Position numbers and translations under genes: made by a program
NCBI RefSeq assembly: GCF_003334405.1
Contig: NZ_QOWM01000010.1
Length of the DNA stretch: 64,000 nucleotides
Reading direction: 5' to 3' (one strand)
DNA from: Escherichia coli
Lineage (GTDB): Bacteria > Pseudomonadota > Gammaproteobacteria > Enterobacterales > Enterobacteriaceae
The notes under the pieces: generated by a model
Seen by the model: the letters and a program-made list of their open reading frames with translations, nothing else
The model's database searches: none
Told to the model about the DNA's origin: nothing
Part shown: positions 508 to 44,714 of the stretch, piece after piece
How positions within the stretch are numbered: the first letter of the stretch is position 1
Layout: the number at the start of each line of letters is the position of its first letter

Positions 508-2922
508 TCACCCCGCAAACTGCCTGAACAGCGCCTTACCCTTAACCAGTCGCGCACCCAGCCAGCCGCCGAAAAGCGACAGCAGCAGCGCTCCGCTGCA
601 CGGCAGAACAATCCACAATCGCCAGTCTGGCTCCCACGGAAAATCAAACACTTTCGCCTGCAACACTGCCAGCGCCGTTTCCGCACCAATTGCGGCCACC
701 AGGCCGGAAACAAACCCAAGCATGGCGAACTCACACCACAACGTGGTACGCAGCAGTTTTTTCCCCGCACCGAGTGTGCGCCACACCACCAGCTCCTGAT
801 GACGCTGACGCATTCCCACCTGCACCTGTGCCAGCAACAGCAACATACCGCAGGCGGTGACCAGTACCACCATCACTTCCAGCGCCCGACTTACCTGCTC
901 CAGCACCTGACCGACCTGTTTTAAAATCGCGCCAATATCTAACAGGCTAATGGTCGGGAACTGGCGGTTGAGTTGTGTCAACATGCCGTTGCCATTCTCC
1001 CAGCGGAAACTGGTAAGCCAGCTCTGCGGTTGCCCGTCTAATGCCCCTTCAGGGAAAATAAAATAGAAATTAGGCCGCAGACTTTCCCAGTCCACTTTGC
1101 GCAGGCTGGTCACTTTAGCGCGGAACTCCTGGGTATCGCCCATAAAAGTCACGGTATCACCGAGGGCAACGTTTAAGCGTTTCGCCAGCCCCTCTTCCAT
1201 CGACACTTCATCGGCTTTTGGCGGCCAGTTACCGGCGACAATCGGATTATGATCGGGCCGCGTATTTTGCCAGGTAAGATTGAGTTCGCGGTTAAGCGCC
1301 TCATCTTCATTACCTTCTGTCGGCTTATCGTTAATCGCCGTCAGCCGCGCCCGCACCACCGGATAAAACGATTCCGGGACTATCTGATGTTCCGCGAGGA
1401 ACGCTTTTAGCGGTGCTACCTGTTCTGTGGCGATGTTAATTAAAAAGTAGTTCGGGCTTTCTGGAGGTAGCTGCTGCTGCCAGCGGTCGAGCAGATCGCC
1501 ACGCAACACCAGCAGCAGTGCCAGCAGCATAAAGGAGAGCGAAAATGCCGAAAGCTGACTTAACGTTGACCACGGCTGACGTAACAGGCGGCTAACCGCC
1601 AGGCGCAGAGGCAGCGATTTCAGCGTCATGCGGCGAAGTACATTCAGCAGCATCCAGCCCAGCACACCGCACAGCAAAGCCAGTACTACCGCGCCCGCCA
1701 GCACCGCCCAAAGCAGCATGCTGCCACCCATTAATCCGGCGAGCAGCAGCACAACCACCACACTGACAATCGGCAGATAAAACTTCAGCGGCCAGACGTT
1801 CGCTACCACATCATTACGTAATACGCGTAAAGGCTGCGTTGCCAGCAACAAGCGATATGGTCGTAGCCCCACCAGCAGCGAGATGACCGTCATGGTGCCA
1901 AGCGCCCACAGCCACGGCCAGAGGCTGGCTGGCGGTAGTGCAGCAGGCAGAACGGGCTTGAGCAGCACCATCAACACGTTTTCGAACAACAGGCCTATGG
2001 CCCCACCGGTAACGGCTGAAAGCGTCAGCACCATCAACCACTGACCGACGATTAGCTTACGCAGTTGCGCTCGCCCTGCCCCCAGCGTTTTGAGGATCGC
2101 CACCAGATCGTAGCGACTGCGACAGTAATGATTCATCGCTACCGCCACCGCTGCCACTGCCAGCAGCAAGGTCAGAAGCGCCGAAAGCAGCAGGAACTGT
2201 TGCGAGCGTTCCATCGATCGCCCCAGCGCGCCTTCGTCCTGTTCCAGACCGTACCAGCGTTGTTCGGGTTTAAGCTGAGGTAACAACCATTTCTCATAGC
2301 CGTCGAGCTGGTTCTCGTTGCCGCCGAATTTATAACGCCAGGTGACCCGACTCCCCGGCTGCACGGCTCCGGTTTTATCGACATCCGCCAGATTCATCAT
2401 CAGACGCGGAGCCATCTGGAAGGGGTTAAAACCGGAATCCGGTTCCTGAATCACTTCTCCGGCAATCCGCAAGGTGGCATCGCCCACGTCAATGGTGTCG
2501 CCCGTTTTCAGGTTAAGCAGTGCCATCAGGCGTGGGGCCAGCAATACGCTGCCCGCCTGCGGTTTCAGGCCAGGGGGATTAGTTTGCAGATCGCCATACA
2601 TCGGGTAGATATCATCCACCGCTTTGACGTTCGCCAGCTGCGGTGTGTCGCCTGCAAAGGTCATTGTGGCGAAAGTCAGCTGCTTGCCGACTTTCAGGCC
2701 GCGCTTTTGCGCTTCCTCCAGCCACGCTTGCGGCACTTCGCGTGAACTGCGCAACGCCCGATCGCCCGCCATAAACTCACGGCTTTGCTGGCTTAAGCCC
2801 TTCTCCATGCGATCGCTGATATTGCCCAGCGCCAGCACGCAGGCCACCGCCAGGCTTAGCGCCAGCCAGACAATTAATAGCGACGGCGAACGCCATTCGC
2901 GCCAGAACCAACGTGCAATCAT
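508..2922 (-). CDS. ybbP: ABC transporter permease, FtsX/MacB-like, 804 aa
   Basis: ORF track 508..2922 (-), 804 aa with multiple hydrophobic TM stretches and large extracytoplasmic segments typical of MacB/LolE-type permeases. Start overlaps the ybbA stop by 4 nt (operon). Confidence 0.93.
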   Translation of the reverse strand: MIARWFWREWRSPSLLIVWLALSLAVACVLALGNISDRMEKGLSQQSREFMAGDRALRSSREVPQAWLEEAQKRGLKVGKQLTFATMTFAGDTPQLANVKAVDDIYPMYGDLQTNPPGLKPQAGSVLLAPRLMALLNLKTGDTIDVGDATLRIAGEVIQEPDSGFNPFQMAPRLMMNLADVDKTGAVQPGSRVTWRYKFGGNENQLDGYEKWLLPQLKPEQRWYGLEQDEGALGRSMERSQQFLLLSALLTLLLAVAAVAVAMNHYCRSRYDLVAILKTLGAGRAQLRKLIVGQWLMVLTLSAVTGGAIGLLFENVLMVLLKPVLPAALPPASLWPWLWALGTMTVISLLVGLRPYRLLLATQPLRVLRNDVVANVWPLKFYLPIVSVVVVLLLAGLMGGSMLLWAVLAGAVVLALLCGVLGWMLLNVLRRMTLKSLPLRLAVSRLLRQPWSTLSQLSAFSLSFMLLALLLVLRGDLLDRWQQQLPPESPNYFLINIATEQVAPLKAFLAEHQIVPESFYPVVRARLTAINDKPTEGNEDEALNRELNLTWQNTRPDHNPIVAGNWPPKADEVSMEEGLAKRLNVALGDTVTFMGDTQEFRAKVTSLRKVDWESLRPNFYFIFPEGALDGQPQSWLTSFRWENGNGMLTQLNRQFPTISLLDIGAILKQVGQVLEQVSRALEVMVVLVTACGMLLLLAQVQVGMRQRHQELVVWRTLGAGKKLLRTTLWCEFAMLGFVSGLVAAIGAETALAVLQAKVFDFPWEPDWRLWIVLPCSGALLLSLFGGWLGARLVKGKALFRQFAG

Positions 2923-3605
2923 GCTTCCTCCTGCAACTGCCCGTTCACCAGCCGTAAGCAGCGGTCGCAGCGTGCCGCCAGTTGCAGGTCGTGGGTCACC
3001 ATAATCAACGTGGTGCCATGTTCACGGTTGAGGGAAAACAGCAGGTCGGCAATTTTATCGCCCGTCTGGCGGTCAAGGTTGCCGGTGGGTTCGTCGGCAA
3101 ACAGCACATCAGGTCGACCATTAAAGGCTCGTGCCAGCGCCACTCGTTGCTGTTCACCGCCGGAAAGCTGTGCCGGAAGATGATCCAGACGTTTACCCAG
3201 CCCTAACTGTTCGAGCAACGCTTTCGCCCCGTTACGACTTTCCGCGCTACTCTCACCGCGCAGCAGAGCCGGAAGCTCGACGTTTTCCAGCGCGTTAAGG
3301 GTAGGAATTAACATAAATGACTGAAAAACAAAGCCGACGTGCTTCGCGCGCAACTTTGCCCGCGCTTCTTCGTCCATATTATGTAGCGGTTGTCCCACCA
3401 GACTCACTTCGCCACTGCTGCCGTCATCAAGCCCGGCGAGGATCGCCAGCAAGGTTGACTTACCCGATCCCGACTCGCCCACCAGTGCGATGGTCTCGCC
3501 ACGTTTGACAACCAGCTCAACTCCGGTGAGGATGGAGAGTTCATGCTCCCCCTGACCGACGGACTTCTTAAGATGATGAACTTCAACAATGTTTTCCGCT
3601 GGCAT
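2919..3605 (-). CDS. ybbA: ABC transporter ATP-binding protein, 228 aa
   Basis: ORF track 228 aa with Walker A GESGSGKST, ABC signature LSGGEQQR and Walker B DVLFADEP. Confidence 0.95.
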   Translation of the reverse strand: MPAENIVEVHHLKKSVGQGEHELSILTGVELVVKRGETIALVGESGSGKSTLLAILAGLDDGSSGEVSLVGQPLHNMDEEARAKLRAKHVGFVFQSFMLIPTLNALENVELPALLRGESSAESRNGAKALLEQLGLGKRLDHLPAQLSGGEQQRVALARAFNGRPDVLFADEPTGNLDRQTGDKIADLLFSLNREHGTTLIMVTHDLQLAARCDRCLRLVNGQLQEEA

Positions 3606-4199
3606 TTGCCCTTCCTGTTCCTGGTCCTGTTAACCTTCCGTGCCGCCGCAGCGGACACGTTATTGATTCTGGGTGATAGCCTGAGCGCCGGGTATCGAAT
3701 GTCTGCCAGCGCGGCCTGGCCTGCCTTGTTGAATGATAAGTGGCAGAGTAAAACGTCGGTAGTTAATGCCAGCATCAGCGGCGACACCTCGCAACAAGGA
3801 CTGGCGCGCCTTCCGGCTCTGCTGAAACAGCATCAGCCGCGTTGGGTGCTGGTTGAACTGGGCGGCAATGACGGTTTGCGTGGTTTTCAGCCACAGCAAA
3901 CCGAGCAAACGCTGCGCCAGATTTTGCAGGATGTCAAAGCCGCCAACGCTGAACCATTGTTAATGCAAATACGTCTGCCTGCAAACTATGGTCGCCGTTA
4001 TAATGAAGCCTTTAGCGCCATTTACCCCAAACTCGCCAAAGAGTTTGATGTTCCGCTGCTGCCCTTTTTTATGGAAGAGGTCTACCTCAAGCCACAATGG
4101 ATGCAGGATGACGGTATTCATCCCAACCGCGACGCCCAGCCGTTTATTGCCGACTGGATGGCGAAGCAGTTGCAGCCTTTAGTAAATCATGACTCATAA
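3573..4199 (+). CDS. tesA: Multifunctional acyl-CoA thioesterase I / protease I / lysophospholipase L1 (SGNH hydrolase), 208 aa
   Basis: ORF track 3543..4199; trimmed to the internal ATG at 3573 giving MMNFNNVFRW, a signal peptide, and the GDSLSAGY catalytic motif. 5' end overlaps the ybbA start on the opposite strand. Confidence 0.93.
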   Translation: MMNFNNVFRWHLPFLFLVLLTFRAAAADTLLILGDSLSAGYRMSASAAWPALLNDKWQSKTSVVNASISGDTSQQGLARLPALLKQHQPRWVLVELGGNDGLRGFQPQQTEQTLRQILQDVKAANAEPLLMQIRLPANYGRRYNEAFSAIYPKLAKEFDVPLLPFFMEEVYLKPQWMQDDGIHPNRDAQPFIADWMAKQLQPLVNHDS

Positions 4200-9469: not shown

Positions 9470-10762
9470 TTATACGGTTTTATTGCGCTTCATGACCATT
9501 GCCACAATAAGGCTGAGTAAGAGTGAGCCAATAATCCATATCAACGCACGGCTACCCTGGGACCACAGACTGTAGATAAAGCCAACGATCACCAACAACA
9601 TCACCAACGTACCAACGATAAGAATCGGCAACGAGGCGTGAATATCATGACGCAGGCGGATCGCCACCACAAACACCGCCAGGTAGCAAATCAAAAAGGT
9701 GGCGCTGGCAACGCTGGCGAGTGAGCCTAAATTCAGTGCCGCCGTCATCAGCATAATCAACACCACGACAATAATGTTGCCCCAGGTACTCTGCCGCCAC
9801 AGGGATTTATTCATTAGCTTCGGCAGTTCGCGTTCGCTGCCCATGTTGTCCATGATGTTAAACACGGCGAACAGGTTCGCGTTAATGGCTGAAGCCGTCG
9901 CCAGTAAAGCGCCGATGACGACGATCACATAACCCACATGCCCGAGCAGCGGAGAAGCAGCCTGCGCTACGGCGGTATCGGCATATTTTTCTAACTCTAA
10001 TGCCGATACATCGCTAAGCAAAACCAGTGCCAGCGAGATATAAAGCAACGTGGTAACGCCAATCGCCACCAGAAACGCCCGTGGCATAATGACCTGCGGA
10101 TCTTTCACTTTATCCGCCGCGTTCGCCATCATGCCAAAGCCCGCATAGGCAAGGAAAGTTATCCCAATACAGGAGAAGAACGCACCGGAGCTGGGGGGCG
10201 CAGAGACGGAAATATGCGCCGGTTGCAGCGACCAGACACCGGCAATAATCAGCAATAACAGGATCATCATTTTAATGCCGACGAGGATCACTTCCAGCCG
10301 CCCTACCGCATGGTTGCTTAAGGAGTTGAAAAGCGTCATCACCGCAATGATCCCCAACGCGTAGAGCAAAATAAGGTGCTCCTCCTGGCTGCCTTCATGC
10401 AAAAACTGCACGGCATAAGCGCCAAAAGCACGGGCGACCATGGCGATGCTCACCGCCAGCGTCAACAGGTACAGTAACGAGAGCGCCAGCGAAAAGACGC
10501 CGTTGCCTAATCCGCGACGAAAGAAGTCGATAATGCCGCCATTGCTGGGATAGCTCGCCCCCAGACGCGCATAGGCATAACCGGAAAACATCGCCACAAT
10601 ACCGCCAAAAGCAAAGGCGACCCAGGTCGAGGCTTCCATTAGCAATGCAGCCTGCCCCAGCAGCGCGAAGATCCCCGCCCCCACCATTGCCCCAATGCCG
10701 ATGGAAACGACGTTCCATAGACCGAGAGGTTTGTTACCGTTATTACCTTCCGTGTTCATCAT
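9470..10762 (-). CDS. ybaT: APC-family amino-acid transporter, 430 aa
   Basis: ORF track 430 aa, about 12 predicted TM helices; lies immediately downstream of glsA on the same strand. Confidence 0.92.
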   Translation of the reverse strand: MMNTEGNNGNKPLGLWNVVSIGIGAMVGAGIFALLGQAALLMEASTWVAFAFGGIVAMFSGYAYARLGASYPSNGGIIDFFRRGLGNGVFSLALSLLYLLTLAVSIAMVARAFGAYAVQFLHEGSQEEHLILLYALGIIAVMTLFNSLSNHAVGRLEVILVGIKMMILLLLIIAGVWSLQPAHISVSAPPSSGAFFSCIGITFLAYAGFGMMANAADKVKDPQVIMPRAFLVAIGVTTLLYISLALVLLSDVSALELEKYADTAVAQAASPLLGHVGYVIVVIGALLATASAINANLFAVFNIMDNMGSERELPKLMNKSLWRQSTWGNIIVVVLIMLMTAALNLGSLASVASATFLICYLAVFVVAIRLRHDIHASLPILIVGTLVMLLVIVGFIYSLWSQGSRALIWIIGSLLLSLIVAMVMKRNKTV

Positions 10763-38931: not shown

Positions 38932-42084
<3,153 letters not shown>

Positions 42085-42629
42085 TACAACGTGTAATCAC
42101 TAAGGCCGCGTAAGCGGCCTTTTTTATGCATAACCTACGAACATTAAGGAGTAATTGAACCACCAACTCAGGATCTCATACGAAAACCAGTATTAACCAC
42201 GGATAAAATTCATAAAAAATACTGATTGTTAGTTAATTTATATTAAGTAGCGCTAATAGATTTAATAATCCATAATCATTTAGAGGCTATTCTTAATTAT
42301 TTGCGGTAATTCTTTATTCATTCCTCGGTTATTACGTCATATTCAGAGCAATCCTGGTATTAGTGTCACCAATTTCATCTGGCGATAATCCTGAAATGTT
42401 ATGAATAGTTCGAGCAAACTGCTTTTACCTGCTGCGGGTTAGTGCTAGTATGAAAAAGTGAGTCCTGTCCCGCTTCCTTCCTAATTGTAATTTTTCGTAA
42501 TAATGCGATGAAAACCTGCAAAGAGTGGCTTATAGTTAAGCTAACAAACGAGAGGGCAAGTCCAGGTCAGTAAGTTTTTTCCATCCCGAAAGGTGTCCGT
42601 TAGTTCAACCGCTAAGAAGGGGACGCGTT

Positions 42630-43004
42630 ATGGATGAATACTCACCCAAAAGACATGATATCGCACAGCTTAAGTTTCTCTGTGAAACCCTGTATCATGA
42701 CTGCCTTGCAAACCTTGAAGAAAGCAATCATGGCTGGGTAAACGACCCAACCTCGGCGATCAACCTCCAGTTGAATGAACTGATTGAGCATATTGCGACC
42801 TTCGCACTTAATTACAAAATTAAGTATAATGAAGACAATAAGCTCATTGAGCAGATCGACGAATATCTGGATGACACCTTTATGTTGTTCAGTAGTTATG
42901 GTATTAATATGCAGGATCTTCAGAAATGGCGGAAGTCAGGTAATCGACTATTCCGTTGTTTTGTCAATGCGACGAAAGAGAATCCTGCGAGTTTATCTTG
43001 TTAG
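42630..43004 (+). CDS. tomB: Hha toxicity modulator TomB (YbaJ), 124 aa
   Basis: ORF track 124 aa; located immediately upstream of hha on the same strand. Confidence 0.92.
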
Positions 43005-43029
43005 AATTATTACAACCATAGGTAGAAGT

Positions 43030-43248
43030 ATGTCCGAAAAACCTTTAACGAAAACCGATTATTTAATGCGTTTACGTCGTTGCCAGACAATTGACACGCT
43101 GGAGCGTGTTATCGAGAAAAATAAATACGAATTATCAGATAATGAACTGGCGGTATTTTACTCAGCCGCAGATCACCGCCTCGCCGAATTGACCATGAAT
43201 AAACTGTACGACAAGATCCCTTCCTCAGTATGGAAATTTATTCGCTAA
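43030..43248 (+). CDS. hha: Hemolysin expression-modulating protein Hha (H-NS co-regulator), 72 aa
   Basis: ATG at 43030 gives [72 protein letters not shown]; embedded in the longer ORF-track entry 42784..43248. Confidence 0.95.
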
Positions 43249-43325
43249 TAAATAATTCGCTTTCGGAGCTATAACCGGCTGTTTATTAAGAATTTTATAC
43301 TTTTTCGCCATGAAGACATACCCTA

Positions 43326-43341
43326 TGTGATCTTTATCACA
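43326..43341. promoter_or_regulatory. Perfect CRP-consensus palindrome (TGTGA-N6-TCACA) upstream of maa
   Basis: tgtga-tcttta-tcaca read directly, about 80 bp upstream of the maa start codon. Confidence 0.55.
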
Positions 43342-43419
43342 CAGATGTAATGGGAACGTTCTCTTCACTGACTTTTCGTCTTACTGTGTTGCCGCATTTT
43401 CAGCAACCGGAGGTCAGTA

Positions 43420-43971
43420 ATGAGCACAGAAAAAGAAAAGATGATTGCTGGTGAGTTGTATCGCTCGGCAGATGAGACGTTATCTCGCGATCGCCTGCGC
43501 GCTCGTCAGCTTATTCACCGATACAATCATTCCCTGGCGGAAGAGCACACATTACGCCAGCAAATTCTCGCTGATCTATTCGGTCAGGTGACAGAGGCTT
43601 ATATTGAGCCAACGTTTCGCTGTGACTATGGCTATAACATTTTTCTCGGTAATAATTTTTTCGCCAACTTCGATTGCGTGATGCTTGATGTCTGCCCTAT
43701 TCGCATCGGTGATAACTGTATGTTGGCACCAGGCGTTCATATCTACACGGCAACACATCCCATCGACCCTGTAGCACGTAATAGCGGTGCTGAACTGGGG
43801 AAACCCGTCACCATCGGTAATAACGTCTGGATTGGCGGACGCGCGGTCATTAACCCTGGTGTGACCATTGGTGATAACGTCGTGGTAGCCTCAGGTGCAG
43901 TTGTCACAAAAGATGTCCCGGACAACGTTGTCGTGGGCGGTAATCCAGCCAGAATAATTAAAAAATTGTAA
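43420..43971 (+). CDS. maa: Maltose O-acetyltransferase (left-handed beta-helix hexapeptide acyltransferase), 183 aa
   Basis: ORF track 183 aa; hexapeptide repeats ([46 protein letters not shown]). Confidence 0.95.
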
Positions 43972-44086
43972 TCGGTTTTTCGCAACTGTTATGCAAAATT
44001 GTGGTAGATCTGTTACTTCCCCTCTACTATTCCCACGTTAAAATAGGGTGTTCCCTGGAAAGTTGCAGATACCACGAAGGCAAACG

Positions 44087-44557
44087 ATGACCGAAATACA
44101 ACGCCTGCTGACCGAAACGATTGAGTCTCTGAATACCCGCGAAAAACGCGACAACAAACCCCGCTTTAGTATCAGTTTTATCCGTAAACATCCGGGGCTG
44201 TTTATCGGTATGTACGTTGCTTTTTTTGCCACCCTGGCGGTGATGTTGCAGTCCGAAACGCTGTCAGGCTCTGTCTGGCTACTGGTTGTATTATTTATCC
44301 TGCTTAATGGTTTCTTCTTTTTCGATGTCTACCCACGCTACCGCTATGAAGATATCGACGTGCTGGATTTCCGCGTTTGCTATAACGGCGAATGGTACAA
44401 CACGCGCTTTGTACCTGCCGCGCTGGTTGAAGCCATCTTGAACTCTCCGCGTGTCGCGGATGTTCATAAGGAACAACTGCAAAAAATGATCGTCCGTAAA
44501 GGTGAACTGTCTTTTTACGATATTTTTACCCTCGCTCGCGCCGAATCAACATCTTAA
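44087..44557 (+). CDS. ylaC: Uncharacterised inner membrane protein, 156 aa
   Basis: ORF track 44048..44557; trimmed to the ATG at 44087 ([16 protein letters not shown]...). Two hydrophobic helices. Confidence 0.85.
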
Positions 44558-44714
44558 GTTAGGGTTACATACCAGGCGTAAAGCTCTGCGCCTGGTCAAA
44601 TGACAATGATCGTTTCCACCCATCACTTCATGAAATACCAGCTCTACCTCCTTATCTCCAGCCAGCCTTTTTCCACAATCAGATATACTTTCCCTACACT
44701 GTGTTAATAAGGAT

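Follow-up and report, generated by a model that had tools for sequence, protein, structure and literature searches.

The stretch of DNA analyzed here, hereafter the window, comprises 64,000 nucleotides of Escherichia coli, and all positions are counted from its first letter. Its segment 41838-44838 is identical to the reverse strand of positions 478500-481500 of the K-12 MG1655 chromosome (NC_000913.3), and coordinates were converted as NC_000913.3 position = 523338 - window position. According to the RefSeq annotation and the list of open reading frames, the E. coli gene order on the plus strand is acrB-tomB-hha-maa-ylaC-pdeB. The spacer between the hha stop codon (ending at 43248) and the maa ATG (starting at 43420) is 171 bp long, and the hha-maa region was found in 5425 of the 5426 complete E. 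coli genomes. The features of the region, with the evidence for each in brackets, are the following:

38935-42084, plus strand: acrB (open reading frame and annotation).
42630-43004, plus strand: tomB (open reading frame and annotation).
43030-43248, plus strand: hha, the upstream neighbor of maa (transferred RefSeq annotation and list of open reading frames).
43326-43341, no strand assigned: cAMP-CRP binding site with the core TGTGATCTTTATCACA (exact match, matrix score, published SELEX and ChIP-seq, conservation).
43352-43363, no strand assigned: dyad GGGAACGTTCTC, resembling a TreR-type (LacI-family) operator (differs from the palindrome GGGAACGTTCCC at one position).
43359-43364, plus strand: -35-like hexamer TTCTCT, 3/6, placed 17 bp upstream of the -10 element (read from the sequence).
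43382-43387, plus strand: -10 element TACTGT (TAnnnT), 3/6, spanning -12 to -7 (distance from the transcription start, conservation).
43394, plus strand: G at which maa transcription starts, giving a 26-nt leader (transcription start table of Kim et al. 2012).
43409-43413, plus strand: Shine-Dalgarno sequence GGAGG, 6 nt before the ATG (sequence, and a conserved purine-rich block in the alignment).
43420-43971, plus strand: maa (b0459), encoding maltose O-acetyltransferase, the gene served by the promoter (open reading frame, RefSeq annotation).
43450-43465, no strand assigned: weak CRP-like motif GGTGAGTTGTATCGCT within the coding part of maa, at +57 to +72 (second motif of a SELEX peak).

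A preliminary description of this DNA had read 43326-43341 as a perfect CRP palindrome with a 6-bp spacer, lying about 80 bp upstream of maa. The match is indeed exact, and the distance to the ATG is 78 bp from the 3' edge of the site and 86.5 bp from its center (43333.5). In NC_000913.3 the site occupies positions 479997-480012, and its 22-bp footprint corresponds to 43323-43344 in the window. Position-weight-matrix scoring used a symmetric matrix of 16 columns derived from the 106 other ChIP-seq sites in Table 1 of Haycocks 2015. On this matrix the maa site reaches 19.74 bits out of a maximum of 21.94 and ranks third among the 107 ChIP-seq sites, and the runner-up 16-mer in the window scores 12.13 bits. 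The match of the core extends to TGTGAT-N4-ATCACA; further out, the site departs from the 22-bp consensus (cta...cag against aaa...ttt).

The same description had called perfect sites rare. In the window, TGTGATCTTTATCACA is the sole perfect TGTGA-N6-TCACA. Dinucleotide shuffles of the sequence contained 0.08 perfect matches on average, with at least one match in 8 of 100 shuffles, and extrapolation from them predicts about five perfect cores per E. coli genome by chance. A perfect core is thus only mildly improbable, and its evidential weight must come from its context.

Binding of CRP at maa is already published, both in vitro and in vivo (2011 and 2015), whereas the preliminary description did not recall the site as documented. 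Genomic SELEX with purified cAMP-CRP placed maa among the 'newly identified targets', and the supplement of that study lists TGTGATAAAGATCACA in the 'maa< <hha' spacer at position 479228 of U00096.2 (Shimada 2011, PMC3105977). This sequence is the reverse complement of the maa site, and its coordinate converts to 43333.5 in the window. A second, weak motif listed under the same peak, AGCGATACAACTCACC at 479104, converts to 43457.5 and corresponds to GGTGAGTTGTATCGCT, which scores only about 8 bits on the CRP matrix; lying inside the maa coding sequence, it is probably incidental and not functional. ChIP-seq of CRP in the enterotoxigenic strain ETEC H10407 gave a high-confidence peak at 540805 with the site TGTGATCTTTATCACA, assigned to maa (Haycocks 2015, PMC4287617), which is one of the eight perfect-core sites in the table of that study. 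For K-12, we found no report of in vivo CRP occupancy of maa in the literature searched. The accessible parts of the text and supplements of the K-12 Crp ChIP-exo study of Latif 2018 contain no mention of maa or b0459, nor does the accessible text of CRPBSFinder 2023. Likewise, maa does not appear in the accessible text of PRECISE-1K or in the accessible text and supplements of a 2026 transcriptome atlas covering 43 carbon sources.

Two further observations concern CRP binding data for this window. The sequence GATGACGACGATCACA inside ybaT (9914-9929) is identical to another high-confidence ChIP-seq site (peak 574230; Haycocks 2015, PMC4287617), so the window holds a second in vivo CRP site, which is intragenic. 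In addition, a genomic SELEX study of FlhDC (PMC9962212) reports a peak whose center falls at window position 43328 (479234 in U00096.2), on the CRP palindrome and off the proposed FlhDC box. The targets listed there also include the treB/treR spacer and the CRP targets nagB/nagE, galE and xylE, and CRP sites may have been co-selected in that experiment.

The start of maa transcription was mapped to position 479168 of U00096.2, minus strand, with 3 reads and a 5' untranslated region of 26 nt (Kim et al. 2012, PMC3415461). The 51-mer given there as the upstream sequence is identical to window positions 43344-43394, which sets the start at G43394. Before this table was consulted, a start at 43394-43396 had been predicted from the position of the cross-species-conserved TACTGT. 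The mapped start is weakly supported, by 3 reads in one data set. Because the cells had been grown in glucose M9 medium, the low read number is consistent with catabolite repression. The portion of the same data available to us lists no start for treB and no start for Klebsiella maa.

With G43394 taken as +1, the center of the CRP site lies at -60.5. Class I CRP sites are positioned near -61.5, or at -72, -82 or -92, and the maa site falls 1 bp from the canonical -61.5. The site is therefore within functional distance of the mapped start, at a class I position. Together with SELEX and ChIP-seq, this position supports the original interpretation, a CRP site preceding maa. A scan of the hha-maa spacer for sigma-70 consensus promoters found no strong promoter on the plus strand. 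Consistently, SELEX with the RpoD holoenzyme selected the ylaB/ylaC, ylaC/maa, hha/tomB and tomB/acrB spacers and not the hha/maa spacer (Shimada 2014). A spacer that is not selected by the RpoD holoenzyme alone and that contains no consensus promoter is what one would expect of an activator-dependent promoter.

Insertion sequences occur in this region in other E. coli genomes. In E. coli ML35, an IS5-like ISKpn26 (2584-3785 of its locus) is inserted at CTTA, which is duplicated and corresponds to 43380-43383 in the window. It sits exactly at the maa -10 element and parts the CRP/TreR-type module from the gene. Other complete E. coli genomes carry IS1, IS3 or IS5/IS903 insertions in the tomB-hha-maa-ylaC region (42600-44600 in the window), and in some of these genomes hha or maa is annotated as split.

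To assess conservation, the regions upstream of maa were compared in 19 enterobacterial genomes (E. coli and 18 further ones). In 17 of the 19 promoters a CRP site scoring 13-19 bits is centered 80-102 bp before the ATG; in the remaining two (Klebsiella and Siccibacter) neither a CRP site nor the adjacent box was found. Column identities were computed on the nine species whose alignment is gap-free between the CRP site and the -10 element. Identity is 0.96 in each half-site, 0.56 in the 6-bp spacer and 0.49-0.60 in the flanks, the upstream flank, at 0.49, not being conserved. In Escherichia the half-sites do not vary, and the spacer reads TCTTTA, TCTTCA, CCTCCG, TCTTCG or TTTTTA. Constant half-sites around a variable spacer are what one expects of a functional CRP site.

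The same pattern bears on the possibility that the palindrome acts as RNA, either as a hairpin that terminates or stabilizes the hha transcript or as another structured RNA. The hha stop codon is 78 nt upstream of the palindrome, and a terminator scan flags the palindrome on the minus strand, with 10 pairs of which 3 are G-C. We nevertheless regard an RNA role as extremely improbable: the positions that vary between species are those of the spacer, or loop, and conservation follows the CRP half-sites and not base pairing. Moreover, no U-tract follows the palindrome on the plus strand, 43240-43400 folds no more stably than shuffled sequences do (z = 0.21) and no Rfam match was found. A better terminator candidate lies nearer hha, at about 43246-43300, where an AU-rich hairpin is followed by a U-rich tail. 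The minus-strand hit itself lacks both a genuine T-tract and a gene upstream of it and, with the z of 0.21, was rejected as an intrinsic terminator.

The preliminary description overlooked a second element, located 10 nt after the CRP 16-mer. The K-12 sequence GGGAACGTTCTC matches the palindrome GGGAACGTTCCC at 11 of 12 positions and is the only match with at most one mismatch in the window. For a spacer of 171 bp, the chance of such a match (37 allowed 12-mers) is roughly 8 in 10,000. Perfect 12-bp palindromes with CG at the center are characteristic of LacI-family operators and do not represent -35 elements. At maa the box (479975-479986 in NC_000913.3) extends from -42 to -31, running into the -35 region, where a repressor, once bound, would obstruct RNA polymerase. 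Its column identity across the nine aligned species is 0.94. Nine maa promoters contain GGGAACGTTCCC without mismatch (Salmonella, four Citrobacter, Enterobacter cloacae, an Enterobacter metagenome-assembled genome (MAG), Kluyvera and Enterobacter R1). One mismatch is found in E. coli K-12, E. ruysiae and Pluralibacter, two in Cedecea and Enterobacter Ag1, and three in E. albertii and in a divergent (cryptic-clade) 'E. coli' strain.

Among the 19 genomes, the box is absent from Escherichia sp. ESNIH1, Klebsiella and Siccibacter. ESNIH1 lacks it next to a near-perfect CRP site, and Klebsiella retains the synteny tomB-hha-maa-ylaC despite missing both elements. The missing elements of Klebsiella and Siccibacter, together with the boxless promoter of ESNIH1, indicate that the regulation of maa was rewired more than once. 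Because the box is imperfect and varies between lineages in Escherichia, control by TreR may be weakened or lost in this genus. The sequences would fit a history in which the box may be decaying there while the CRP site became perfect.

The distances between the elements are conserved as well. In the nine aligned species a TAnnnT motif stands at a fixed distance from the CRP site, with 85% column identity versus a background of about 55%. The gap between the CRP site and the box is usually 10 nt; it is 4 nt in Cedecea, Enterobacter Ag1 and Enterobacter R1, and 11 nt in Salmonella. Promoters with the 10-nt gap have 18 nt between the box and TAnnnT, and those with the 4-nt gap have 24 nt, except for 23 nt in Enterobacter R1; in Salmonella the distance is 20 nt. 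The spacing from the CRP site through the box to the -10 element is thus either 10+12+18 nt or 4+12+24 nt. The interval between CRP site and -10 element is constant in 9/9 in-register species and in 2/3 of the species with the 4-nt gap; the exceptions are Salmonella, which is 3 bp off, and Enterobacter R1, which is 1 bp off.

This geometry helps to judge whether CRP, once bound, matters for transcription. CRP could occupy the maa site with little or no transcriptional effect, in which case maa would be cAMP-independent. In the literature searched we found no experiment that ties maa mRNA or enzyme to crp, cAMP, treR or trehalose, about a third of CRP ChIP-seq peaks are intragenic with no obvious target (Haycocks 2015, PMC4287617), and chance alone would supply the handful of perfect sites per genome estimated above. 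However, half-sites conserved in 17/19 promoters around a variable spacer, and at a constant distance from the -10 element where this could be measured, are hard to explain without selection on promoter function. In addition, -60.5 is an activating position, and the weak core is not bound by the holoenzyme alone. Silent occupancy therefore appears quite unlikely to us.

A second start assigned to maa lies inside hha, at 479377 in U00096.2 (43185 in the window), with 7 reads and a 235-nt leader (Kim et al. 2012, PMC3415461). It could reflect an internal promoter, a processing site or noise. On a transcript from this start the CRP site would lie at about +148, and CRP bound there might repress maa, or block read-through from hha or from 43185, rather than activate. 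Such a role is very unlikely in our judgment. The geometry that is conserved is the distance to the downstream -10 element, whereas the flank upstream of the site is not conserved, and CRP is not known to be an efficient roadblock.

Activation of the class I type is the most likely function of the site, given a CRP center at -60.5 as in lac P1. The adjacent box leads to another promoter. The treBC promoter is CRP-dependent, repressed by TreR and induced by trehalose-6-phosphate. In K-12 the treB promoter reads TGTGATCTTCGCTGCG-tttc-GGGAACGTTCCC-(24 nt)-TATTCT, the same module as at maa. The palindrome GGGAACGTTCCC is invariant in the treB promoters of Escherichia, Salmonella, Pluralibacter, Enterobacter and Edwardsiella, where the mean identity of the intergenic region is 65%, and in all five genera these promoters lie directly downstream of the LacI-family gene treR. 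All 14 perfect copies of GGGAACGTTCCC among the 96 loci compared lie in maa promoters (9) or treB promoters (5), and none occurs in the 67 maa loci from Bacillota. The palindrome is probably the TreR operator that Horlacher and Boos (1997) are reported to have described; this putative identity is based on the conservation footprint together with that work. Because the same 12-mer stands in the treB promoters next to treR, the maa promoter resembles one of the treBC type. On the experimental side, treB is a recognized CRP target, and its spacer was also selected by cAMP-CRP in genomic SELEX (PMC3105977). TreR operators in the treBC promoter are annotated in RegulonDB, according to the citation of that database by Meinhardt et al. 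2012.

The TreR regulog of the Enterobacteriales comprises 8 regulons and 8 sites in 12 genomes (RegPrecise; Ravcheev 2014, PMC4052901), that is, a single TreR site per genome and hence none to spare for maa. This count, the boxless Klebsiella promoter and the decaying box of Escherichia would all suit an alternative in which the box is bound by another LacI-family protein or another regulator, or is a structural part of the promoter, and in which maa stands outside the trehalose regulon. We think this unlikely. The 12-mer is invariant at treB beside treR in five genera and was found nowhere else among the 96 loci, the order of CRP site, box and -10 element is common to both promoter families, and the palindrome looks like that of a LacI-family operator. 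Full-text searches of the literature retrieved no paper joining TreR with maa or with maltose acetyltransferase, and a search for GGGAACGTTCCC returned only papers on the Streptomyces CebR box and unrelated primers. The operator at maa thus appears to be unannotated, and the new observation made here is the presence of the box beside a known CRP site.

Taken together, we consider it likely that the palindrome is a genuine high-affinity CRP operator that forms the upstream element of a treBC-like maa promoter, one combining class I activation with TreR-type repression. In this promoter, cAMP-CRP at -60.5, placed as in lac P1, would recruit RNA polymerase through the C-terminal domain of the alpha subunit and would thereby rescue a weak core (-35 TTCTCT and -10 TACTGT) when glucose is absent. 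A LacI-family repressor, most likely TreR, would block RNA polymerase by occupying -42 to -31, and trehalose-6-phosphate would relieve this repression as it does at treBC. Activation of maa by CRP, binding of the box by TreR and continued function of the K-12 box despite its mismatch are inferences. The narrower proposal that the TreR (trehalose-6-phosphate) regulon of Enterobacteriaceae has maa as a second member, as yet unannotated and controlled by a treBC-type module, has in our estimate an even chance of being right. The box also suggests that CRP may be only part of the regulation of maa, the gene-specific signal being trehalose-6-phosphate.

A physiological rationale for such a link can be proposed. 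When TreC cleaves trehalose-6-phosphate, glucose-6-phosphate and free glucose result; free glucose, like maltose, is acetylated by Maa. Maa might therefore act as an overflow outlet for the glucose that TreC sets free, in parallel with LacA under the control of CRP and LacI.

A scan of reference genomes showed that the closest relatives of Maa outside the Enterobacteriaceae all belong to Bacillota (Paenibacillus, Bacillus and their kin), with 61-72% identity. This is not far below the 73-80% identity of Maa between enterobacterial genera, and maa may have been transferred horizontally between phyla.

The CRP site alone adds nothing new: genome-wide lists of CRP targets have included it since 2011 and 2015, and its behavior is that of a standard class I site. 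What is added here is the anatomy of the promoter, its footprint across genera and the adjacent TreR-type operator, which together make a modest and testable lead. If TreR does control maa, this would provide a regulatory clue to the role of Maa and tie it to trehalose catabolism. It would also enlarge the TreR regulon, so far treated as a single operon, and it would provide a compact case of a CRP plus LacI-family module common to a catabolic operon and an unlinked sugar acetyltransferase gene.

The maa site can be compared with three kinds of known systems. The other perfect-core CRP sites occupied in vivo (caiT, ycfQ/bhsA, ygcW/yqcE, galP, yibI, mtlA and fdoG) share the same core and ChIP-seq occupancy with maa. 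There is no difference in kind between them, and maa is merely less studied.

Lac P1 is the textbook class I CRP promoter, with CRP at -61.5 and a LacI-family repressor, and it drives expression of the paralogous LacA. Both promoters have one CRP site located about 61 bp before the transcription start, a weak core and an operator, putative at maa, of the LacI-family type, and the product in both cases is a hexapeptide-repeat sugar O-acetyltransferase. They differ in that the CRP core is perfect at maa and imperfect at lac. The putative operator of maa lies between the CRP site and the -10 element, over the -35 region, whereas that of lac lies at +11. Furthermore, maa is transcribed alone, whereas lacA is the last gene of a catabolic operon, and the activation of maa is presumptive, unlike that of lac.

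The treBC promoter differs from that of maa mainly in the quality and placement of the same parts. Its CRP site is weak (2-10 bits, with only the left half-site conserved), whereas that of E. coli maa is perfect. Conversely, the box is perfect at treB and starts 4 nt after the CRP 16-mer, whereas that of E. coli maa has one mismatch and starts 10 nt after it. The maa box is 6 bp closer to the -10 element than the treB box, and the action of TreR at maa is putative. In other respects the two promoters are alike: genomic SELEX with cAMP-CRP recovered both spacers, the distance from the predicted CRP center to the -10 element is 48 nt in both, and both present a CRP site, a GGGAACGTTCCC dyad and a TAnnnT -10 element in that order.
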